Shown: piece by piece, positions 16,657 through 50,129 of the stretch | How the letters are laid out: every line of letters starts with the position of its first letter | Position numbering within the stretch: position 1 is the stretch's first letter | Origin: Synechococcales cyanobacterium bin2.concoct.b11b12b14.033 | Lineage (GTDB): Bacteria; Cyanobacteriota; Vampirovibrionia; Caenarcaniphilales; Caenarcanaceae | Direction: 5' to 3' | Assembly (NCBI GenBank): GCA_013298875.1 | Contig: JAAFJH010000001.1 | Location: 7,030-71,029, forward strand | DNA length: 64,000 bases | Translations under genes and position numbers: made by a program | Notes under the pieces: model-generated | Told to the model about the DNA's origin: nothing | Seen by the model: the letters and a program-made list of their open reading frames with translations, nothing else | The model's database searches: none

Positions 16657-16726
16657 TATAACTTGTATGTCTAAATTTGTGGGCAAAGTTTAAGAAAAAA
16701 AATTAAAATAAAATAATTATTCATTA

Positions 16727-31908: not shown

Positions 31909-32307
31909 TTACTTGGACTTTTTCTTAGTGGTAGCGGCTTTGGCTGAAACTTTAGAAGTGCTGGCTTTAGTAGCTGCTTTTTTCTTAGCACCAGCGGCAA
32001 CAATTTTTTTACCAAAAGATTTTAATTTTTTCTTTTGAGCGACTGATTGTTTAAGATTGTCCGAAAAACTAATAACTGGCACGTCAGTAGCAGGAATGGT
32101 CATTATTTTACGGGTTTGAGGATTAACGCCTTTGCGAGATTTACGATGTCTGACCTGAAAGCTTCCAAAACCGATTAAAGATACATTTTCATGCTTAGCT
32201 AAAGCTCCTGTAACCACATCCAAAAAAGAATTAAGGATTAAGGAAATTTTAGTTTTTTCCAATTCAGTTTTTTGAGCAATTTCATTGACTAATTCAGTTT
32301 TATTCAT
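31909..32307 (-). CDS. hup: DNA-binding protein HU with lysine/alanine-rich C-terminal tail
   Basis: HU fold (MNKTELVNEIAQKT...GFGSFQVRHRKSRKGVNPQTRKIMTIPA...) followed by a 45-aa KKKLKSFGKKIVAAGAKKKAATKASTSKVSAKAATTKKKSK histone-H1-like tail. The start is placed at MNKTEL; the tracked ORF begins 14 codons earlier. Confidence 0.85.
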   Translation of the reverse strand: MNKTELVNEIAQKTELEKTKISLILNSFLDVVTGALAKHENVSLIGFGSFQVRHRKSRKGVNPQTRKIMTIPATDVPVISFSDNLKQSVAQKKKLKSFGKKIVAAGAKKKAATKASTSKVSAKAATTKKKSK

Positions 32308-32464
32308 TTTTCTATTTTTATTGGTAAACGATAATATGCAAAAAAGCAATTAGAGTAAATCCGCCCTGAGTGAGTTGAAATCCAGCTCTAGTTTACTTTT
32401 CAACTTTGTCTAATGGCTTTTAAAGTATTAATTTCGGTTAAAAAATTTTCTTTTGCCGATTAGA

Positions 32465-33490
32465 CTAAGCATATAAACTTTGCCCAGTTGATCGTAAATC
32501 ATCACAAGCCAAACTTATTCTAGCTGCCATATTTTTCTCAGCTAATTTACCATAGTTTCGCGGATCATAAAACTTTTTATCACCAACTTCCCCATCAATC
32601 TTTAAAACTTTATCGTAATTTCTAATCATATGCTCGACAATTGGCCTTGTATAAGCATATTGAGTATCCGTGTCAACATTCATTTTTATGACGCCATATT
32701 CTAAAGTTTCATGAATTTCTTCAATTGACGATCCTGAGCCACCATGAAAGACTAAATTCAAATTAACTCCCGGGAATTCTTTGGTAACAGCAGTTTGTCC
32801 GTCATGTAAAATACTTGGTTTTAACTTAACACTGCCTGGTTTATAGACTCCATGAACATTTCCAAAGGTCGCGGCAAATAAAAATTCTTTTGATATTGGG
32901 CTTAATTGTTCATAAACATAAACCATATCTTCACGCGTTGTATAAAGCTTATCATTGCTCACTCCACTGGTATCATGGCCATCTTCTTCACCACCAACAA
33001 CTCCAGCTTCTACTTCCAACAATAATTCCAATTCAGTCATTTCTTTTAATAATTCTTTGTCAATGTTCATATTTTCTTTTAGTGGAAGCTCTGATCCATC
33101 AAACATATGAGAATTAAATAAATTAGCCAAGCCTTTTTCACGCCGACGACGAGTTTCAGAAATTAAAGGCCTTACAAATTTGTCTAATTTACCTGGTTGG
33201 CAGTGATCAGTATGCAAAGCGACATAAATATTAAATTGTTCGGCTAAACGGTGGACATATTCAGCAATCGCAATCGCTCCAGTTGGCATATCTTTAATTT
33301 TTGTTCCGGAAGCATATTCAGCTCCACCAGTTGAAACTTGTATTATTCCGTCAGATTGTTTATCTGCAAAACCTAGTAAAGCCGCTCTGGCTGTTTCCAT
33401 GCTGGTTACATTAATGGCGGCGAAAGCAAACTTTTTTTCTTTGGCTTTGGCAAGCATTTTACGGTAAATTTCGGGTGTGGCGACTGGCAT
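32465..33490 (-). CDS. fba: Fructose-bisphosphate aldolase, class II
   Basis: 341 aa; class II FBA blocks (AINVTSMETA..., HTDHC, GGEEDG, FHGGSGS). Confidence 0.95.
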   Translation of the reverse strand: MPVATPEIYRKMLAKAKEKKFAFAAINVTSMETARAALLGFADKQSDGIIQVSTGGAEYASGTKIKDMPTGAIAIAEYVHRLAEQFNIYVALHTDHCQPGKLDKFVRPLISETRRRREKGLANLFNSHMFDGSELPLKENMNIDKELLKEMTELELLLEVEAGVVGGEEDGHDTSGVSNDKLYTTREDMVYVYEQLSPISKEFLFAATFGNVHGVYKPGSVKLKPSILHDGQTAVTKEFPGVNLNLVFHGGSGSSIEEIHETLEYGVIKMNVDTDTQYAYTRPIVEHMIRNYDKVLKIDGEVGDKKFYDPRNYGKLAEKNMAARISLACDDLRSTGQSLYA

Positions 33491-33510
33491 AATTTATTTT
33501 TTTAGCTGAA

Positions 33511-33685
33511 CTAGTTTGATAATTTAAAATATAAAGCTTTTATTAAAAATAAGCGGGAAATAACTGACTTTTTAAGTAATTTTTAACTTTTTTAATTAAC
33601 TCAAACAAATCCTTAGACGCCAAGAATAATGATTGTTTTTAATTTTATTTTCCAAAACTTAAGATTATTACTTTTAGATTTTTGT
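33511..33685. repeat. Copy A of a roughly 170-bp duplicated upstream/5'-leader segment
   Basis: ctagtttgataatttaaaatataaagcttttattaaaaataagcgggaaataactgac...ccttagacgccaagaataatgattg... is about 95% identical to 34168-34335; lies between divergent fba and the 33763 gene. Confidence 0.8.
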
Positions 33686-33762
33686 TCATGTGAAGGTTTG
33701 TTTTAAAGTTCTCAATGATAGTCTTTGGTATATTTATTAAGTAAACTTTTAAAGGCAAAACA

Positions 33763-34107
33763 ATGACCGATTCAATCAGAGCAATTTCCCCTCAAAGCTG
33801 GAGAAACCTCGGACGAGAACTTACCCCTAGGGAAGAGGTTAGACAACGGGCAAAAAAATATTTACCTAATGCACAAGAACCTATTCTACCATTATCAGCC
33901 CCAAGAACTAAGCCAACTACTCCACAAAATGAAGGAAGTACTAATACAAATTCAGCACATTCAGAAAGTAATGACTTTCCCGATCACGTAAGTAGATTTG
34001 ATTTAAATGATAAACAGTTTTCTCTGCTGCCACCGGATAAGCAAGCTGAATTAAGTAAGAATGGCGGAACGATACCAGGCTGGTTAGCAAAAAGACTCTT
34101 AGGATAG
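33763..34107 (+). CDS. Hypothetical hydrophilic protein, paralog of the next gene's N-terminus (candidate secreted effector)
   Basis: 114 aa, no signal peptide, Pro/Ser/Thr/Asn-rich. Its first codons (atgaccgattcaatcagagcaatttcc) are recognisably homologous to the start of the 34424 gene, and it shares the duplicated upstream segment. Confidence 0.45.
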   Translation: MTDSIRAISPQSWRNLGRELTPREEVRQRAKKYLPNAQEPILPLSAPRTKPTTPQNEGSTNTNSAHSESNDFPDHVSRFDLNDKQFSLLPPDKQAELSKNGGTIPGWLAKRLLG

Positions 34108-34167
34108 TACCGCATAATTAATAGTTTCAAACCATAAAGTTAAAAGTGATTTCAATCCATTTTTTAA

Positions 34168-34335
34168 CTAGTTTGATGATTTAAAATATAAAGCTTTTAT
34201 TAAAAATAAGCGGTAAATAACTAACTTTTTAAGTAATTTTTAACTTTTTTAATTAACTCAAATAAATCCTTAGACGCCAAGAATAATGATTATTTTTAAT
34301 TTTATTTTTCATAGTTTGAGATTATTATTTTTTGT
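34168..34335. repeat. Copy B of the roughly 170-bp duplicated upstream/5'-leader segment
   Basis: Near-identical to 33511-33685 (a handful of substitutions); directly upstream of the 34424 gene. Confidence 0.8.
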
Positions 34336-34423
34336 CAATTGGTCAAACGAAGGTTTATTTTTAAATTCTTTAGTGTTAGGCTGTAAATTATATTTACTAA
34401 ACAAACTTTACAGGTAAAGAATA

Positions 34424-35629
34424 ATGACAAATCCAATTGGAGCAACTTCCACAGGACAAAAATATCAAACTCCAAGAAATAGTTTAAAACAAACTTGGGA
34501 GGAGCCTTCAGCTAGAACTATGGCTGAATTTGAGGCACAACAAGCCCAATCTCTAAGGGTTCCTAATCTTGAGGTAATAAAGGAATTGTTTACGAATGCT
34601 AAAACTGAAGCCCCCCAAAGCAAACTTTCAACTCCCGCCAGTAAATTATTAGAACCAGCTAATCAAAATCTTCAATTAACTGCTGAATTGCCAACTGATA
34701 AATTACTTCAAGAGTATGATACTTCACTCCAAACATTGGCTGCTGAGCATTATGCCAACTTACATGCTTTAACCCAATCAAATGAAGCAGATATTGAGGA
34801 ATTAAAAAGTAATATTGAAACAAAATTTAAAGAATTCTCAGCCAAAGAACTTCGGTCTCATCACGAAGCCGTAAAAAGAGCAGAAGAAGCCTTACTTTTA
34901 GCTAAAGCAGATTTGGCAAATGAAGAGAAAAAATTACTCGATATTAAGGGAGATTCACTAGAAGCTAAGAAAGCCAATTTATTAAAAGCTCACCAGAAAG
35001 CTCTGCAAACTGCTGGAAAAGAACATGAAAAAGCTGTGTCAAATGCAACTGGAGCCTATTATTTGAAAAAGAATAAATCGGAAGAGTTGGCAGAAAAAGT
35101 TAATAGTGTGTCAACCGCTTTTCTTTCTCAATTACCCCAAGAAGGGAAATCCACAACGCCTAATTCATTTCAAGATTCTATTACTGGATTAGGAGTATTG
35201 AAAAAGAATCTTCTTTCTTCAGCTAAAGCTAAACCTCAGTCAAATAATTCAGGTACGCCAACTACTTCGGAGCCATTAAGTAATAATACTACTTCCTCCA
35301 ACAACAATGAGTGGTTACCTAAAGCAGGTCAATCAATGCTTACCCCAAGGACAAAACCGTCAGTTTCACTTCCTAATAATGAAACAAGTGCTTCAAAACC
35401 AACGATTGAATCAATGACGACTCAGATTAAAAATAGTAATTTTATTAGTGCGGAAGATAAACAACAAAGACTTAGCTTAATTAAGGATTTTGATGAAATG
35501 CTTTCGGAAGGTAAAAAAGGAGAAGCCTTTAACCACTTAAACAAAATGATAACTAATAGAGAAGGAGTGCTAGCTAGTAAACTTAAAGACCTCTGGAATG
35601 CAACTCACCCAAATAATCCAATCGGTTAA
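34424..35629 (+). CDS. Hypothetical coiled-coil / low-complexity protein (candidate secreted effector)
   Basis: 401 aa; no signal peptide, disordered N-terminus, central coiled coil, S/T/N-rich tract (SNNSGTPTTSEPLSNNTTSSNNNEW). Confidence 0.5.
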   Translation: MTNPIGATSTGQKYQTPRNSLKQTWEEPSARTMAEFEAQQAQSLRVPNLEVIKELFTNAKTEAPQSKLSTPASKLLEPANQNLQLTAELPTDKLLQEYDTSLQTLAAEHYANLHALTQSNEADIEELKSNIETKFKEFSAKELRSHHEAVKRAEEALLLAKADLANEEKKLLDIKGDSLEAKKANLLKAHQKALQTAGKEHEKAVSNATGAYYLKKNKSEELAEKVNSVSTAFLSQLPQEGKSTTPNSFQDSITGLGVLKKNLLSSAKAKPQSNNSGTPTTSEPLSNNTTSSNNNEWLPKAGQSMLTPRTKPSVSLPNNETSASKPTIESMTTQIKNSNFISAEDKQQRLSLIKDFDEMLSEGKKGEAFNHLNKMITNREGVLASKLKDLWNATHPNNPIG

Positions 35630-35683
35630 GAACGCTTCTGAATCAGGATTTATTGGATTAAAGGATAAACAGGATTTACGTTT

Positions 35684-36094
35684 GTGAAAAGTTATAAAAG
35701 TCAATTCTTAAAATCTCAAAATCTTAAATATCCTGATTCAGATCATAAAAATATGATTATTCAACGAACAAATTTATCTGCTCAATTTATTAAAAGCCAA
35801 GTTGCTTACAAACATAAATCGGCACATTCCGTAGAGACGGGTAGTTATAGGGGGAGAATTTCAGAAGTTCGTGGATTTATTCTTGGTTTATTTTTGCTCG
35901 AACATCAAGCAAAATCATTAATTAAAAAACTTGATGAATTTGAATCTGCAATTCGAGATACTCGCTTCCTTACTGCTAAAGAAATTATAAATTCTTTTGA
36001 TCAATCGACCACAGACCCTTTAAATATTAAACCCGACGAAATAACAATTCAGAGACATTTACAAGAAATATTAAATCACGAAAGAAAATCTTAA
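35684..36094 (+). CDS. Hypothetical basic protein
   Basis: 136 aa; tracked ORF begins at GTG; first ATG (MIIQRTN...) is 23 codons in; no recognisable motif. Confidence 0.3.
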   Translation: MKSYKSQFLKSQNLKYPDSDHKNMIIQRTNLSAQFIKSQVAYKHKSAHSVETGSYRGRISEVRGFILGLFLLEHQAKSLIKKLDEFESAIRDTRFLTAKEIINSFDQSTTDPLNIKPDEITIQRHLQEILNHERKS

Positions 36095-36233
36095 ACCACT
36101 TTGTACCTTTTCTATTTTGAATACTCGCCTAGTAATTCAATTTACAAAGTCTCCTAAGCCTGTTTCTTATTGAAGCTTGCAAGATTTTAGGTTTATTTCT
36201 CCAACAAAAACATTGAAATTATTAAAAAGTAAT

Positions 36234-37061
36234 TTAATTTTGAGCGGCAAAAGCCGGAGCCATTCCAGCTAAGCGTCTTTTTATATATTCTTGGCTTGAT
36301 GGATAAGAACGGCGAAATGAAGCAGTTGGAATTATTTTTTTGAATAGAATTTCTGCCAAGTTTTCAACATTAATTTCAACATTTAAATAATAACTGTCAA
36401 GCCCAGCTCCAATTAAGCTAGTATATTCTCCATAAACAGGAAATACACTAGTACTTAATTCGCCTTTTAATAAAACTGCACGTGTTTTTCCCGAAGAATT
36501 ACTGTGTTGATAAGCAGTATTCCCCATAGAGCGATCCAACATGCCCAGTAAATTCCGCCTTGCAATTGGTAAAAGAGAGCTTTGTGGGTTTAAATTTCCT
36601 TTTTGTTTTGCCAAATCAATTATTTCAGCCGGTGGAATTAAAACTGGAAGTGCTATTTCGGGGTTTAAACGTAAACTGGCAAAATGCAAAATAGCATGAA
36701 AGCTTTCATGAATCCAGACTTTAATAACTTGTTCGGAATTATATTCTTTAAAATAATTGCCTGAAAAACGCATGCTCCAGTCATCTGAATGAAAGGTAGC
36801 CACAAATCGAATTCGGTCATAAGTAATTTCAGTAATTGGCAAAGGAGCTAAGCTAGGAAATAAAGCTAAGTGTAAGTCTTGCAAAAAGCTAATACGACTT
36901 TCTTTCGACATATAAGCCCACTCTGTCCGGGTTCTGCTAAAAAGTTGAGTTGCTTCCTGAAAAGCTATTGGTTTAAAAGTTTGTGCAAAAAAGCTTTGAT
37001 AAATCTCACTTGAAAGAGGTTTTACCTCGTCTGGTATTGGTTTTCCAGGCTGAATATACAT
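36234..37061 (-). CDS. Hypothetical protein with HExxH zinc-metallopeptidase motif
   Basis: 275 aa; WIHESFHAILH contains a canonical HEXXH; no signal peptide; otherwise unrecognised. Confidence 0.4.
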   Translation of the reverse strand: MYIQPGKPIPDEVKPLSSEIYQSFFAQTFKPIAFQEATQLFSRTRTEWAYMSKESRISFLQDLHLALFPSLAPLPITEITYDRIRFVATFHSDDWSMRFSGNYFKEYNSEQVIKVWIHESFHAILHFASLRLNPEIALPVLIPPAEIIDLAKQKGNLNPQSSLLPIARRNLLGMLDRSMGNTAYQHSNSSGKTRAVLLKGELSTSVFPVYGEYTSLIGAGLDSYYLNVEINVENLAEILFKKIIPTASFRRSYPSSQEYIKRRLAGMAPAFAAQN

Positions 37062-37964: not shown

Positions 37965-38174
37965 TTAAATTAAGTCTTTTTCTGTGAGGTTAGCTTGTTT
38001 CATTATTGATTTTAATATCCCAATTCCTAAATCTTGATTTGAATGAACTGGCACAGAAATTGCAAAGTTATTTCCTTTTTTTCTATATACATGATGACTT
38101 CCATTAACACGAATAAAGATCCAGCCATGTTTTTCTAAAACTTTACAAAATGCTTTACCAGAATAACTTTTCAC
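37965..38174 (-). CDS. hicA: HicA-family mRNA interferase toxin
   Basis: 69 aa; YcfA/HicA fold with GWxxxRxxGSHHxY motif (KHGWIFIRVNGSHHVYRK). Confidence 0.85.
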   Translation of the reverse strand: MKSYSGKAFCKVLEKHGWIFIRVNGSHHVYRKKGNNFAISVPVHSNQDLGIGILKSIMKQANLTEKDLI

Positions 38175-38377
38175 AAATTAAACTCCATCAATTGAGAACG
38201 CTTATCTAATTCACCTTCTGGAATATTCATTGCTTCAATCCAGCCTTCAGCAGACTCTTTTAAGTTTTCAATTATCTCTTCAATAGTTTTGCCTTGAGTA
38301 AAACAACCAGGTAAAGCTGGTACTTCCGCCCAGTAACCGCCTTCTTCTGCTTCGTGAATAATTGCTTGAATTTTCAT
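38171..38377 (-). CDS. hicB: HicB-family antitoxin (short UPF0150 form)
   Basis: 68 aa; MKIQAIIHEAEEGGYWAEVPALPGCFTQGKTIEEIIENLKE matches the HicB RNase-H-like N-domain; 4-nt overlap with hicA downstream. Confidence 0.7.
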   Translation of the reverse strand: MKIQAIIHEAEEGGYWAEVPALPGCFTQGKTIEEIIENLKESAEGWIEAMNIPEGELDKRSQLMEFNL

Positions 38378-38509: not shown

Positions 38510-39964
38510 ATGTTTAAGAACATGGCAATCTTAAAAGAAGTATGTATTGAAAAATTTCGAGATATAAAAGATCTAATTTTACCAATTGGTGAGCGGCTTA
38601 CAATAATAGCTGGGCGAAATGGAACTTCCAAAACAACAATTTTAGGAATGCTAGCACATGGGTTTACTTTTGATGCAGAACATAAAACATTATTTGGATC
38701 TGCTTTTCATACAGACTTAAAAGAGGTACTCCAGCTAAGTGATGAAGAGATTCAAAGTACAAAAATTAATATAAATCTCCACTCTAAAGAAAGACCATTT
38801 ATTCAGCTAATACCTACTTATCATAAAGAGGAGGATAGACACAGAATTGTTGCAAGAGGAAAAGCGGAAGACTCAGAGGGAAAGCTTAAGGCAATAAGTT
38901 CAAAACATTCTTGTCCAGTAATTTACTTAACTCTTGGCAGATTAAGTCCACTATTTGAGCTTACATCTGCCGATCCAGATCATTCTTTTCAAGAGGAAAG
39001 CTTAAGTGAGGATGAGCTAAAAATAGGCCAACACTTACATAAAGCTTTAATTAACATTGATGAAGAGCTTATCAGTTTTGAAAGACTGACATCAAAGATA
39101 AAAACAAAAAGTGGAAAGAATACCAGAAAAATAGCTGCGGGAACGAAGAAGTATGGGAAATATGGCATGTCCGCAGGACAGGATACTATTGTTCAAATTG
39201 CTTTTGCCATCCTTTCCTTCAAGCGATTAAAAGAAAAAACTCAAGATTATAAAGGAGGTCTTTTATTAATTGATGAAGTTGAAGCGACCTTGCATCCATC
39301 TGCCCAGAGAAGTCTTATTCAAATACTAAATCAATATTCCAGAGAGTATAGCATGCAAATTGTTTTAACTACCCATTCATGGTCATTTCTTCAAGACAGT
39401 CGTAAGGAAAAATCGCAGATCAACTATATTACAAAAGATGAAGGGGAATTTAAATTACTTACAGATATGCAGGGGATAGAAGAAGATTTCTTTTCGAGAG
39501 CATTTGATCAAAGAAAATCAAAAATACAAATACCTGGTTTTTGTGAAGATAAATCTGCAAAGAAATTCTTGGAACTCATTCTTTCAAAAGAAAATAAGGA
39601 GCAAATTCATCTTGGAGTATTGGGTACACGTGATGTTATTGTGCAGCTGGCAAAGAATTTCTTTAAGTGTAAATTGAATCCTTGCGTATGGTTCTTGGAT
39701 GGAGATCAATTGAGATCTAAAAACTTAGAAAAGGGAGTACTCGTTTTACCTTCTAATAGGCAAGTTTGCCCAGAATTGGAAATTTACGAGTTTCTAGTTG
39801 GCTTAGAATCTTCAGATTCTTTGTGGCAATTAATTAGCTATACAAAATCTCAAATGTTTCACAAGTCAAATAGTGAGCCATTAAAGTCTAGGCCAGAAAA
39901 CAAAGCGAAAAGATTATGGGAAGATATCTCAAATACAAGTCGTAAAGTGAACATAAGACTTTAA
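38510..39964 (+). CDS. OLD-family ATP-dependent nuclease (ABC/AAA_21-type ATPase fused to a C-terminal Toprim domain)
   Basis: 484 aa; Walker A GRNGTSKTT, ABC-signature-like MSAGQ, Walker B LLLIDEVEATLHP, H-loop VLTTHS; then Toprim-like glutamate (GFCEDKSAKKFLE) and DxD (WFLDGDQ). Confidence 0.75.
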   Translation: MFKNMAILKEVCIEKFRDIKDLILPIGERLTIIAGRNGTSKTTILGMLAHGFTFDAEHKTLFGSAFHTDLKEVLQLSDEEIQSTKININLHSKERPFIQLIPTYHKEEDRHRIVARGKAEDSEGKLKAISSKHSCPVIYLTLGRLSPLFELTSADPDHSFQEESLSEDELKIGQHLHKALINIDEELISFERLTSKIKTKSGKNTRKIAAGTKKYGKYGMSAGQDTIVQIAFAILSFKRLKEKTQDYKGGLLLIDEVEATLHPSAQRSLIQILNQYSREYSMQIVLTTHSWSFLQDSRKEKSQINYITKDEGEFKLLTDMQGIEEDFFSRAFDQRKSKIQIPGFCEDKSAKKFLELILSKENKEQIHLGVLGTRDVIVQLAKNFFKCKLNPCVWFLDGDQLRSKNLEKGVLVLPSNRQVCPELEIYEFLVGLESSDSLWQLISYTKSQMFHKSNSEPLKSRPENKAKRLWEDISNTSRKVNIRL

Positions 39965-40082: not shown

Positions 40083-40949
40083 ATGAGCTTTGATTCACCT
40101 CTTCGATATCCAGGCGGCAAAGGTCGTCTAACAAACTACATTAAATCAATTTTTGAACTGAATGATTTAGTAGGTGGTGAATATGTTGAACCTTATGCTG
40201 GTGGTGCAGGAATAGCCTGTTCACTTTTACTTTCTGGTCATGTATCTAAAATTCACCTAAATGATTTAAACAAGTCTATTTATGCTTTTTGGTACTCAAT
40301 AATGAATAGTACTGATGAATTTTGTAAATTGATTTTTGACACTGAACTAACTATTGAGGAATGGTATAAACAACGAGAAATTCAAAAAGATTATGATTCA
40401 TGGCTTTCACTTGGTTTCTCTACATTTTTCTTAAATCGTACTAATCGATCTGGAATTATTACTGCTGGTGTAATTGGAGGATTGAAGCAAGATGGAGAAT
40501 GGAAATTAGATGCTCGATTCAATAAAAGCAATTTAATTTCAAGAATTGAAAAACTTGCGCAATATAAAAAACAAATTAAGTTATCTAATAAAGACGCTGT
40601 TATTTTTGTGAAGGAAACTATCAAAAAACTTCCTGAGAAATCTTTGATCTATTTTGATCCACCTTATTATATGAAAGGGCAAAAACTGTATGCAAATTAC
40701 TATGAGCATCATGATCATCTTCAAATCTCTTCTTTAATTCAAGAAAAAATAACGCAAAATTGGATTGTTTCTTACGATTATGTTCCTGAAATTGCAAAAA
40801 TGTATAAAGTTCAGTCAAAAGTTTATGATTTAAGTTACAGTGCTGGTAATCGTTATAAAGGTAAAGAAATAATGTTTTTTTCTCCCAATTTAAAGAAACC
40901 CACAACTATAAGCAAATCAAGCCTTTTGGAGAGAAAGAAGTTTAGCTAA
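40083..40949 (+). CDS. dam: DNA adenine methyltransferase, D12 (Dam) class
   Basis: 288 aa; N-terminal YPGGKGRL (Dam AdoMet/FxGxG-region equivalent), catalytic DPPY (IYFDPPYY); 118 bp downstream of the OLD-like gene, same strand. Confidence 0.85.
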   Translation: MSFDSPLRYPGGKGRLTNYIKSIFELNDLVGGEYVEPYAGGAGIACSLLLSGHVSKIHLNDLNKSIYAFWYSIMNSTDEFCKLIFDTELTIEEWYKQREIQKDYDSWLSLGFSTFFLNRTNRSGIITAGVIGGLKQDGEWKLDARFNKSNLISRIEKLAQYKKQIKLSNKDAVIFVKETIKKLPEKSLIYFDPPYYMKGQKLYANYYEHHDHLQISSLIQEKITQNWIVSYDYVPEIAKMYKVQSKVYDLSYSAGNRYKGKEIMFFSPNLKKPTTISKSSLLERKKFS

Positions 40950-43957: not shown

Positions 43958-45652
43958 ATGGCTAACGAAAGAATTACAGAAAATATTGTGAGGAATCTTT
44001 TAAGGGATAAAGGGTATTATGATAATGATAAAATCATAATTGAAGAACAATCATCTGCCAACCCCCAAATAAACAAATTACTGAAATTAGCCTCTAAGAG
44101 TGGTACGGGAAAAGGTTATCCTGAATTTATTATATCCTTTAAAAACAAACCTAATGACCTTATAGTCATTGAATGTAAGGGGAGCATTACATATCACGAG
44201 AGTAAGGATAGAGAGCAATATAAGAATTATGCAGTTGACGGGGTCTTGCTGTATGCCTCTTATTTGAAAGATTCGTTTAACGTAACAGCTATTGCGGTAA
44301 GTGGTGAAAATGAGAGAGAGAAAAAAATATCATCTTTTATTTGGCTGAGAGAGCATTACACCTATAAAAACATTCAGGATAAAATACTATTAGCTCCTGA
44401 TGAAATTTCCAATATAATAGTAGAGCAATCCAAACCTATTTCAGAAGATGAGTTAATAAAAAAGGCTATTGAATATAACTCCTTTTTACACAAATACTCT
44501 ATACCCGAAGTTGAAAGATGTACCCTGATAAGCTCAATATTGATAGCGTTACAAGACAAACCTTTTCTAAGCAGCTACAAAGAATATACAAACAACAGGG
44601 ATTTAATAGAGAACTTAATTGAGGCTTGCAAGCGTGTTTTAAAAAGTAAGGAATTAGAAGATAGAAAGACAGAAGTAATCATTGATGAATACTCAAAGTT
44701 TAAAAACAACAATGGTTCATTTAACTCTCAGACATTCTATAATAAAAAGACTAAAAGCGACGAAGCAAACACTATACTTAGAGATTTTATAATTCTCATT
44801 AATGAAAATATACTTCCTTATATCAATAATAGTGAATTTGATGTATTAGGTAAGTTCTATACACAGTTTATAAGATATGCAGGTAGCGATAAAAAAACGG
44901 GGTTAGTCTTAACACCTACTCATATAACAGATTTATTTTGTGAAATAGCCGATTTAGGTATAGATGATATAGTTTTTGATGAGTGCTGCGGTACTGCAGG
45001 TTTTTTAGTCTCAGCTATGAATTATATGCTAAAGAAAGCAGGGAACAACTCTGAAAAGAAGAAAATAATTAAGTCATCTCAATTATTGGGTATTGAAGAT
45101 CGTTCTGATATGTTTTCTCATGCTTGCTCTAATATGATGATGAGGGGGGACGGCAAAAGCCACATTCTTTACGGCGACTGTTTCAAGGAAGAAAATAAAA
45201 GTATTATTAGAGCAAATAAACCGACAAAAGCCTTTTTAAATCCTCCATACCAAGATGGGAATGCAGCCGAACAATTAGAATTTATCGAAAATGCTTTAAG
45301 TTGCCTAGTAAAAGATGGGCTCTGTATTGCCATTTGTCAAATGTCAACAACTGTTTCGAGTAATAAGGATGTAATAGAAGTTCGGGAACGGATATTGGCC
45401 AACCATACATTAGAAGCCACATTTTCAATGCCTATCGATTTGTTTCACCCCGTCGGAGTTAATACGAGCATTTTGATCTTCAAGGCACATCATGTGCATC
45501 CCCAAAGGAAAAAAACATTTTTTGGGTATTTTAAAAACGATGGTTTTGTGAAAACCAAAAATCATGGAAGGGTAGATAAGAACAATCAGTGGGACGAAAT
45601 TAAAAAAACTTGGCTTAATGCTTACATTAATAAAGAAAGCATTGTAGGATAA
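43958..45652 (+). CDS. N6-adenine DNA methyltransferase (gamma class, HsdM/Eco57I-like) with N-terminal restriction-endonuclease-like domain; no adjacent HsdS/HsdR
   Basis: 564 aa; N-terminal PEFIISF...LIVIECKG resembles a (P)D/E...(D/E)xK nuclease or HsdR-N-like core. The methyltransferase has motif I VFDECCGTAGFL, then motif IV NPPY (FLNPPYQDG); it has no target-recognition domain and no specificity subunit nearby. Confidence 0.7.
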   Translation: MANERITENIVRNLLRDKGYYDNDKIIIEEQSSANPQINKLLKLASKSGTGKGYPEFIISFKNKPNDLIVIECKGSITYHESKDREQYKNYAVDGVLLYASYLKDSFNVTAIAVSGENEREKKISSFIWLREHYTYKNIQDKILLAPDEISNIIVEQSKPISEDELIKKAIEYNSFLHKYSIPEVERCTLISSILIALQDKPFLSSYKEYTNNRDLIENLIEACKRVLKSKELEDRKTEVIIDEYSKFKNNNGSFNSQTFYNKKTKSDEANTILRDFIILINENILPYINNSEFDVLGKFYTQFIRYAGSDKKTGLVLTPTHITDLFCEIADLGIDDIVFDECCGTAGFLVSAMNYMLKKAGNNSEKKKIIKSSQLLGIEDRSDMFSHACSNMMMRGDGKSHILYGDCFKEENKSIIRANKPTKAFLNPPYQDGNAAEQLEFIENALSCLVKDGLCIAICQMSTTVSSNKDVIEVRERILANHTLEATFSMPIDLFHPVGVNTSILIFKAHHVHPQRKKTFFGYFKNDGFVKTKNHGRVDKNNQWDEIKKTWLNAYINKESIVG

Positions 45653-49112: not shown

Positions 49113-50129
49113 TTGTTGTTAGACTTGCTTATGATTATTCGCCCAGGATTAAGTGTACTCAGACAAGCTTTTTCTCTTACAGATGTTAGTCAAGCTAAAG
49201 CTCCAGTTGAAGTTGAAGATCAATGGAGGAGTGGACTTCGCTTACCAGATGGAATTAATTCTCAGGATTCAGGAATAATACCTACTTCTAATAATAAGCA
49301 GATAACGATTGAAGAGTCTGGCCTATCAGCTTGGGCTTTTAATATCTTGAAAAAAACAGGTTTACTAACTGTAGAAAAAATACTACAATCCATTCAAGAA
49401 AATAATGGAAATCTTCCAAAGGGTACGGTAGAAAATTCAAGCAAAACAGGGCGTGAAATTATAAATTATGCACTAACTAAAAATGCTGAGCAGGAAGGTG
49501 AAACGTCAATTGAAGAGTCTGGCTTGTCAACTAGAGCTTTGAAAATCTTAACTACAGAAGGTTTACTAACTGTAGAAAAAATACTACAATCCATTCAAGA
49601 AAATAATGGAAATCTTCCAGAGGGTACAGTAAAAAACTCAAGCGATACAGGGCGTGAAATTATACATTATGCACTAACTAAAAATGCTGAGCAGGAAGGT
49701 GAAACGTCAATTACGGATACGGAACTTGGTTTAGAGATACAGTATTTTAGTGTTTTATTGAGGAGCGGTTTATTCACCGCCGAAGATGTACTCGAAGCAA
49801 TTCAAGAAAATAATGGAGCTCTTCCTTATGGTACATTAGAAAACTCAAGCCAAACAGGACGTAAAATTATAAATTTTGCCTTAAATATAAATGCTAAGAA
49901 AAAAGATAAAACGTCAATTACGGAACTTAACTTAGACATAAGGTATATTAATGCTTTGTTAAAAAAAGGTTTATTTACGGTTGAAGATGCATTCAAAGCA
50001 CTTTCCCAAAAACAAACAATTTGTAGAGATCAAGGAGTAATTAAAGTAGCTGTTTTAGGGTTTTGGGCTAGACAAAGTGAACAAGCTAAACTTTTGCCTA
50101 CTGGATTAAAAGCAAAAGAGGCGGACTAG
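49113..50129 (+). CDS. Protein composed of four tandem RNA-polymerase-alpha-CTD-like helix-hairpin-helix repeats
   Basis: 338 aa; four units of 67-69 aa (IEESGLSxxALKILxxxGLLTVEKILQ...GRExIxYAL...) match the alpha-CTD pattern E-L-x-L-S-V-R-x-x-N-x-L-K-x-x-G-I-x-T-V-x-D-L. The underlying 201-bp DNA repeats R1 and R2 are nearly identical. Confidence 0.55.
   Translation: MLLDLLMIIRPGLSVLRQAFSLTDVSQAKAPVEVEDQWRSGLRLPDGINSQDSGIIPTSNNKQITIEESGLSAWAFNILKKTGLLTVEKILQSIQENNGNLPKGTVENSSKTGREIINYALTKNAEQEGETSIEESGLSTRALKILTTEGLLTVEKILQSIQENNGNLPEGTVKNSSDTGREIIHYALTKNAEQEGETSITDTELGLEIQYFSVLLRSGLFTAEDVLEAIQENNGALPYGTLENSSQTGRKIINFALNINAKKKDKTSITELNLDIRYINALLKKGLFTVEDAFKALSQKQTICRDQGVIKVAVLGFWARQSEQAKLLPTGLKAKEAD
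49308..50129 (+). repeat. Tandem array of four 201-207-bp coding repeats (starts 49308, 49509, 49710, 49917)
   Basis: R1 vs R2 about 90% nucleotide identity over 201 bp; R3 and R4 are progressively diverged. Confidence 0.8.

Follow-up and report, generated by a model that had tools for sequence, protein, structure and literature searches.

Why do two neighbouring genes, whose coding sequences cannot be aligned beyond the first codons, stand behind nearly the same stretch of upstream DNA? The question is raised by a locus in a contig of a metagenome-assembled genome (MAG) from Caenarcaniphilales, a little-known uncultured lineage of non-photosynthetic cyanobacteria. Further in this study the window means the whole analysed stretch of DNA, 64,000 nt long. 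In the original prediction, an upstream segment was described as duplicated in tandem, each copy preceding one of two paralogous effector-like genes, and the better preservation of the non-coding part was taken to suggest selection on a promoter, operator or 5'-UTR element rather than neutral duplication. Below we describe the duplicated segment and its surroundings, then the two genes, and then weigh the explanations for the likeness of the two upstream regions.

Extent and setting of the duplicated segment

The repeat search in the window revealed a direct repeat of 204 nt (33509–33712 vs 34166–34369) with 89% ungapped identity and a start-to-start spacing of 657 nt. In the blastn alignment the homology reaches further, covering 33509–33789 and 34166–34450 (286 columns, 83% identity, E=4e-80). 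The left and the right units are referred to as copy A and copy B, respectively. Both precede open reading frames (ORFs) of the same strand: copy A, an ORF of 114 aa starting at 33763 (MTDSIRAIS...), and copy B, an ORF of 401 aa starting at 34424 (MTNPIGATS...). Thus, a two-copy tandem duplication of an upstream segment before two genes was predicted correctly, with the limits only slightly shifted, and the repeat is a genuine, fairly ordinary local duplication.

Identity between the copies changes in steps along the repeat. The first 165 nt match at 154 positions (93%), and most of this part is a near-identical core of 143 nt, located on the forward strand at 33509–33651 in copy A and at 34166–34308 in copy B, with five mismatches (96.5% identity). 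The core has an A+T content of ~80%, and the window, a G+C content of ~33%. The high-identity tract is contiguous; it begins at the left limit of homology and has a sharp end near 33652. Beyond the core the identity of the copies is ~68%, with indels, across ~110 nt, the ATG codon and the first approximately nine codons, after which the sequences become unalignable. The difference between the core (5 mismatches in 143 nt) and the neighbouring ungapped 61 nt (18 mismatches) is highly significant (Fisher p=5e-7), and the longest exact match between copies A and B is 39 nt. Two further claims are therefore upheld: the first codons are common to both genes, the DNA alignment covering about nine of them, and the non-coding DNA is kept better than the coding DNA (96.5% identity in the core as against coding sequences that are unalignable after these codons).

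The diverged proximal parts of the copies extend from the core to the start codons, occupying 33652–33762 in copy A and 34309–34423 in copy B (forward strand). Relative to the start of the 114-aa gene, core A spans positions −254 to −112. The 657-nt repeat period is completed by a unique tail of 58 nt between the stop codon of the 114-aa gene and copy B (34108–34165, forward strand); the alignment showed no counterpart of this tail upstream of copy A, and a scan found no terminator-like site in it.

A core-derived 25-mer has exactly two occurrences in the window, compared with zero expected from 100 shuffles, and neither the 25-mer count nor blastn found a third copy in these 64 kb. A weak third match at 16686–16722 was rejected as a compositional match between A+T-rich sequences. 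No match to the element was found in phage and plasmid collections, so that the view of the element as something other than a generic scattered repeat holds within the window and these collections. Searches of the loci surrounding fba, the gene adjacent to copy A, in 80 other genomes and in 8 metagenome contigs found no copy of the element and none of the orphan proteins encoded behind it. Exact-pattern scans of genome contigs (a 25-mer), metagenome contigs (two patterns) and viral contigs returned nothing, or chance matches that were limited to the seed and did not extend. Such scans demand an exact match: the first metagenome pattern missed contig L095 (JGI 3300079869, 1643 nt) by a single C-to-T change, and the second one falls outside this contig. 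The exact-pattern negatives are weak, because one real relative was missed through a single SNP. This relative, a partial orthologous copy on metagenome contig L095 that covers 34236–34308 of core B and the sequence after it, is the one relative of the element found beyond the window.

Reading of the sequences gives a sole promoter-like arrangement conserved in copy A, copy B and L095, namely TTG[T/G]TC and TAAA[G/T]T separated by a spacer of 16–17 nt, and it is situated in the proximal part. The candidate σ70-like promoter of copy A consists of TTGTTC (33682–33687), a 16-nt spacer and TAAAGT (33704–33709), and that of copy B, of TTGGTC (34339–34344), a 17-nt spacer and TAAATT (34362–34367), all on the forward strand; L095 has the same hexamers as copy B. 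Both candidates lie ~55 nt before the start codons. In a generic promoter scan, sites were no commoner than expected by chance. As far as the hexamers indicate, the promoter is likely to be in the diverged proximal part, not in the near-identical core.

On its other side copy A faces fba, which encodes class II fructose-bisphosphate aldolase (32465–33490, reverse strand; Pfam PF01116, E=1.5e-75) and is transcribed divergently. The copy begins 18 nt from the fba start codon (33490, minus strand), and core A spans positions −19 to −161 from this start; the placement of copy A in the divergent fba promoter region is thus correct as a position. The whole fba upstream region in this lineage is made up of copy A. 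The closest match to the Fba protein, from a Candidatus Caenarcaniphilales MAG, has 93% identity, and the next best matches come from Caenarcanales, Vampirovibrionia and Melainabacteria. In the relatives with 93% identical Fba, an orphan gene of 343 aa in the same orientation and a spacer of 280 nt stand before fba. This spacer has no significant similarity to the DNA upstream of fba in the window, the local alignment score being below the mean of shuffles, which places a rearrangement breakpoint no farther than ~20 nt from the fba start. A MAFFT alignment had suggested that copy A could be homologous to the ancestral fba promoter, but this was rejected on the same score. As the DNA before fba bears no relation to that in the relatives, we infer that the fba promoter must be contained in the copy A region, with core A carrying, on the other strand, whatever drives fba. 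The islet of orphan genes, which is variable among strains, adjoins this synteny break.

Genes behind the two copies

The codon usage of both ORFs agrees with that of genuine genes. The 114-aa ORF (33763–34107, forward strand) has a codon-usage score of +0.31 in frame and negative scores in the two other sense frames, which is within the range of the known genes of the window; the 401-aa ORF (34424–35629, forward strand) likewise shows native codon usage in frame. Neither protein matches a Pfam or NCBIfam family, and both are singletons in a collection of 15 billion proteins.

The DNA homology of the two genes stops at about codon 9. For the proteins, BLASTP yielded a single short motif (E=0.02), and the profile comparison by hhalign, E=0.31 on a different alignment. 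The weak matches PRTKP, DKQ and LA[KS][RK]L are co-linear in the two proteins, and the gap-tolerant global score was equalled by 7 of 500 shuffles. With P0017, a 169-aa relative of the 401-aa protein described below, the 114-aa protein gave E>1 in BLASTP. Whole-length paralogy was considered and is unproven, given that the co-linear resemblance beyond approximately nine residues is not significant by BLASTP or by hhalign. Hence the word paralogous, as applied to these genes originally, fits their common first nine or so codons, and the paralogy of the remainder does not reach significance (BLASTP E=0.02, profile E=0.31).

The description of the genes as effector-like finds no support. Searches of Pfam, NCBIfam and structures found no effector domain or fold in these proteins, and no secretion-system family was matched among the window ORFs scanned with Pfam. 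The context is that of an ordinary chromosome: the neighbours comprise gltX, a lipid desaturase gene, HU, fba, a glutamine amidotransferase gene, uvrA, an AcrB-type pump and homoserine dehydrogenase, that is, housekeeping functions, together with a HicAB pair (toxin-antitoxin) and DNA methyltransferases (restriction-modification). The source is a Caenarcaniphilales MAG of a free-living type, and to our knowledge this order has not been described as an effector-secreting pathogen.

The sole true relative of the 401-aa protein, identified by phmmer among 1.8 billion representatives, is P0017 (169 aa, E=5e-29), which starts with MTNPISPTPSG. It is encoded by contig L095, which is syntenic with the window and carries the partial element, the 169-aa gene, a 113-aa gene and, on the opposite strand, a 275-aa gene. 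L095 aligns only to 34236–34438 (91% identity) and 35316–36577 (90%) of the window; between these blocks, 178 nt in L095 replace 877 nt in the window, with no similarity between the two. From the breakpoint on, the contig of another strain, L096 (Logan SRR12360574), the third in this comparison, shares 97.7% identity with L095, but upstream of the breakpoint it has window-like sequence, i.e. similar to the 401-aa gene, from 35179. This pattern of matches marks the 401-aa gene as a mosaic: its 5' flank is conserved, its middle can be exchanged, and its C-terminal part is shared. Codons 1–5 are common with the orthologue, the middle (34439–35315) is variable, and the sequence is conserved from 35316 to its end in a four-helix domain. 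Thus, the middle of the gene behind copy B has been exchanged between strains. The AlphaFold2 model of the 401-aa protein consists of a disordered N-terminus, long helices (91–235), a disordered linker and the four-helix C-terminal domain (pLDDT 88), for which no match was found among solved structures.

The two downstream neighbours allow for a comparison of evolutionary rates. The 113-aa orphan gene (35753–36094, forward strand) is syntenic in L095 and L096 and has 91% amino acid identity to positions 832–1173 of L095; the ATG codon at 35753 is likely to be the true start of the 136-aa ORF that opens with GTG. The conserved 275-aa gene (36234–37061, reverse strand) contains an HExxH motif, shows a weak SprT-like match below the cutoff and is identical in L091 and L092; it was used as the yardstick of neutral divergence between strains. 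The last 84 codons of the 401-aa gene show 37 non-synonymous and 3 synonymous differences between the window and L095 (dN 0.21, dS 0.063, dN/dS ~3, p=0.03). The respective values are dN 0.046 and dS 0.058 for the 113-aa gene, and dN 0.004 and dS 0.11 for the 275-aa gene. The contrast between the upstream and coding DNA is therefore partly due to the hypervariable downstream gene, which is mosaic and has dN/dS of ~3, and not only to conservation upstream. A strain-variable middle together with an excess of amino acid changes in the C-terminal domain is a common pattern in proteins that come into contact with phages, hosts or competitors. The gene behind copy B, hypervariable and with its middle swapped among strains, is a more useful lead than the repeat.

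Age of the duplication and near-identity of the core

In the three-way alignment of copy A, copy B and L095, copy A is the odd one out at 28 sites, copy B at 4 and L095 at 3. The L095 copy is orthologous to copy B, and therefore the duplication that gave rise to A and B is older than the split between the window strain and L095. The proximal parts agree in that A and B differ by ~32% mismatches and B and L095, by 7.5%, which is near the synonymous divergence (8 mismatches and 8 gap columns in 115 columns, about the neutral level). In contrast, the cores of A and B differ by 3.5%, less than the synonymous divergence between strains, which equals 6–11% (dS 0.058, 0.063 and 0.11). As the divergence between paralogous cores is below the neutral divergence between strains, the core has not been evolving neutrally since the duplication. 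The proposal that selection, rather than neutral duplication, accounts for the likeness of the copies is not established, since a contiguous tract with sharp edges fits gene conversion between them equally well.

The part of core B present in L095 (34236–34308, 73 nt) differs from it by one substitution and one indel, compared with ~4–8 changes expected. This reduction is marginal, with p from 0.003 to 0.2 varying with the neutral rate and the way the indel is counted, and the comparison of the core with the proximal part between B and L095 yields Fisher p=0.09. Three-way comparison assigned to this 73-nt stretch two changes specific to A and one substitution and one indel specific to L095, the latter being represented by one copy only.

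The reading that we favour, with about an even chance of being right, is that the repeat represents a 5' flank duplicated within a fast-evolving gene family, and that its core remains near-identical mainly through concerted evolution, possibly with some constraint. The duplicated flank would comprise the upstream DNA, the translation start and about nine codons of two tandem genes, and these genes would be members of a very small, lineage-restricted and fast-evolving family in Caenarcaniphilales. The near-identity of the core may be mainly the product of gene conversion or unequal crossing-over between the tandem copies, possibly supplemented by purifying selection. The core itself is probably generic upstream promoter DNA of both genes, situated at approximately −40 to −180 from the putative transcription start, where DNA of this kind or regulator sites are normally found. 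Direct repeats of 143 nt with 96.5% identity and a spacing of 657 nt could support RecA-dependent deletion or duplication of the 114-aa gene, and through the same tract of homology the genes behind the copies could be deleted, duplicated or reshuffled.

Gene conversion or unequal crossing-over, on the one hand, and purifying selection, on the other hand, both fit the data, which do not separate them. The contiguous and sharp-edged tract speaks for conversion, as constraint alone would have to be approximately ten-fold over 143 A+T-rich bases. Simple gene conversion is awkward in that the tract runs to the edge of homology, leaving no homology on the left side for resolution. Conversion alone, acting within one genome, does not explain the low divergence of the core between B and L095, which points to some constraint, albeit on small numbers. 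At both sites of the 73-nt stretch that vary between A and B, L095 agrees with B, so that nothing there speaks positively for a recent conversion.

Constraint is given the leading role if the core is taken to be a discrete cis-regulatory module, i.e. an array of operator or activator sites or a curved UP-like region, that is under strong purifying selection and provides a shared input to both genes and perhaps to fba. We consider this possible, though doubtful. The core has been kept between paralogues that predate the separation of the strains; in the orthologous comparison it is identical at 72 of 73 positions, apart from one indel, as against 7.5% mismatches in the proximal part and dS of 6–11%; and its location at approximately −40 to −180 relative to the candidate promoter is appropriate for regulatory sites. 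The short palindromes AACTAGTT and TTAATTAA and three TTTTTAA repeats at 8–11 nt from one another can be seen in it by eye, but palindromes of this kind are common in DNA with 80% A+T. Moreover, an approximately ten-fold constraint over 143 contiguous bases, uninterrupted by variable islands, exceeds that on most coding DNA here and is atypical of arrays of binding sites. The cross-strain test that would favour a module is marginal (p 0.003–0.2; core vs proximal part, Fisher p=0.09), and just two copies of the core are known. A more specific version seems to us unlikely: a dedicated cis module, the core, would accompany genes under diversifying selection in Caenarcaniphilales, providing them with a shared regulatory input and at the same time with a recombination handle, by which variable gene bodies could be duplicated, deleted or swapped while the expression signal before them stays fixed. 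If the core did prove to be a selected regulatory or recombination module, it could serve as a marker for such genes elsewhere in these genomes.

It is very improbable that the core is a mobile or recombination element, such as a MITE, an IS end or an integron-type attC site, that carries or captures the genes behind it. Such an element would be in keeping with a repeat unit placed amid orphan genes, in a strain-variable islet beside the synteny break at fba, and with the mosaic structure of the genes behind the copies. However, the repeat search found no terminal inverted repeats at the ends of the unit, there are no further copies in the window and none in the phage and plasmid collections, and the window ORFs scanned with Pfam include no integrase, transposase or recombinase. 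The attC sites fold as single-stranded hairpins, whereas the two cores, when either strand is folded as single-stranded DNA, are less stable than shuffled sequences (z from +0.9 to +1.6) and form no hairpin.

We hardly credit the idea that the core encodes a structured RNA (a riboswitch or other leader, or a small RNA) or a leader peptide that regulates the genes behind it. The segment is indeed upstream of both genes, and an ATG codon (33629 in A, 34286 in B) opens a small ORF in both copies. Yet no Rfam match was obtained at the gathering threshold or at E≤1, and the RNA folds of both strands are less stable than those of dinucleotide shuffles (z from +0.5 to +1.2). The weak folds, both as RNA and as single-stranded DNA, thus exclude a riboswitch-type leader and an attC-type hairpin. 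The small ORF has 25 aa in A, 43 aa in B and, by reading, 9 aa in L095, so that no frame is conserved, and the changes in it, judged by eye, are mostly non-synonymous. Nothing in these searches and folds hints that the core acts in any form but double-stranded DNA.

The assembly of the locus is supported by a contig from nearly the same strain, L097 (Logan SRR9948933), which is 99.87% identical to the window over 5384 nt and confirms the junction between fba and copy A with an A-specific base. It ends at 33551 of the window, inside a 35-nt stretch that is identical in A and B, and contig L095 likewise starts inside the core; the end of L097 agrees with the break that a two-copy repeat would cause in a short-k assembly, if the k-mer size is as assumed. 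An artefact of assembly, that is, a chimeric join of strain variants in a metagenome contig, is scarcely conceivable: although the source is a MAG contig, the short contigs of other assemblies break inside the core and no contig except the window spans both copies, the longest exact A/B match is only 39 nt, both copies have unique flanks, the junction between the 114-aa gene with its tail and core B must physically exist, L097 independently confirms the junction of fba with core A, and breaks within the core are expected from a real repeat in a short-k assembly.

Comparison with known systems

Terminal reassortment of type III effectors, reportedly described by Stavrinides et al. in 2006, is said to fuse a shared promoter and N-terminal secretion signal to unrelated C-termini. 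The likeness to our locus consists in a common 5' flank and first codons followed by unrelated protein bodies. The difference is that only approximately nine codons are shared here and nothing marks the proteins as secreted.

Concerted evolution by gene conversion is well known in duplicated bacterial genes, as are mosaic genes with conserved ends and a variable middle, e.g. babA and babB of Helicobacter pylori. The locus studied here resembles them in the sharp-edged near-identity between old paralogues and in conserved gene ends with a middle swapped among strains. It differs in that the tract is non-coding upstream DNA and not coding DNA, and conversion is inferred. The locus is of modest importance. 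It provides a clean small example, in a little-known uncultured lineage, of a duplicated 5' flank that stays near-identical while the genes behind it diverge or are swapped.

In Borrelia, the genes behind a conserved upstream homology box (UHB) recombine and vary. The locus described here is like that system in having well-conserved upstream sequence before otherwise divergent genes, with 96.5% identity in the core and coding sequences that are unalignable after about nine codons. In Borrelia burgdorferi, OspE paralogues of the erp family share similar promoter sequences, the UHB, with OspF-type genes (PMC7002432); the naming of the erp family is credited, as cited there, to Marconi et al. 1996. 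The UHB exists in many copies on cp32 prophage plasmids, precedes lipoprotein genes and has known operator-binding proteins, whereas our locus has two copies in tandem on the chromosome, lacks a signal peptide and a known regulator, and shows no relation to the UHB in sequence. In design, the UHB is the closest analogue of the locus, and the resemblance is not one of family membership. Were the core to be a cis module of the kind considered above, the locus would represent a chromosomal analogue, in non-photosynthetic cyanobacteria, of the UHB/erp design of Borrelia.

The fba upstream region and the repeated core

Synteny is broken directly at the start of fba in the comparison of the window (33491–33508) with the DNA upstream of fba in three loci from related genomes (L001, L006 and L009). 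In these relatives, whose Fba is 93% identical to that of the window, the gene order is rpoC2-rpoB-(191 aa)-(343-aa orphan)-fba-HU and fba is preceded by an SD-like GGAG, whereas the upstream DNA of the window is unrelated to theirs and lacks GGAG. The 343-aa orphan gene of related Caenarcaniphilales lies immediately upstream of fba (L009, 288–1319; L001, 8688–9719), and no family match was found for its product. Its place is that of the duplicated islet in the window, and the site upstream of fba seems apt to hold lineage-specific genes. On the other side of fba, a gene at 31909–32349 (minus strand) encodes an HU-type DNA-binding protein whose C-terminal tail is long and rich in Lys and Ala. 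This gene is conserved beside fba in all relatives; its start varies by gene caller, yielding 132–159 aa.

Independent short contigs break off within the near-identical core repeat. L097, a Logan contig (SRR9948933) from nearly the same strain as the window, starts at window position 33551, and L095, a JGI contig (3300079869) from another strain, at 34236. Such ends fit a core that is repeated in the reads of two different samples or strains.

Strain variation in the 401-aa gene and the genes beyond it

The middle of the 401-aa gene (34439–35315) differs among strains: L095 has an unrelated stretch of 178 nt in its place, and in L096, a Logan contig (SRR12360574) from another strain, it is in part window-like. 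In the C-terminal four-helix domain (35375–35626), 37 of the changes between strains are non-synonymous and 3 are synonymous, a dN/dS of about 3.3 (p=0.03).

The following 136-aa ORF with a GTG start (35684–36094) probably corresponds to a true gene of 113 aa starting from the ATG at 35753, the start that matches the orthologues in L095 and L096. The 113-aa protein (35753–36094) has no family match, and its gene looks relaxed (dN/dS about 0.8). The next, 275-aa protein (36234–37061, minus strand) is strongly kept between strains (dN 0.004, dS 0.11). It contains an HExxH motif (HESFH) and shows a weak, sub-threshold SprT-like match; this protein may be a zinc protease.

Other genes of the neighborhood

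A 338-aa ORF with a TTG start (49113–50129, plus strand) matches solely the C-terminal domain of the RNA polymerase alpha subunit (E=1.3e-9), the N-terminal RpoA domains not being detected in it. Overlapping ORFs at 37965–38377 (minus strand) encode a HicA toxin (E=3e-20) and a HicB-like antitoxin. Genes around uvrA encode an AAA_15/AAA_21-type ATPase (38510–39964), a D12-class adenine methyltransferase (40083–40949) and an N6_Mtase protein (43958–45652); these ATPase and methyltransferase genes may form a restriction-modification or defence cluster near the orphan-gene islet.
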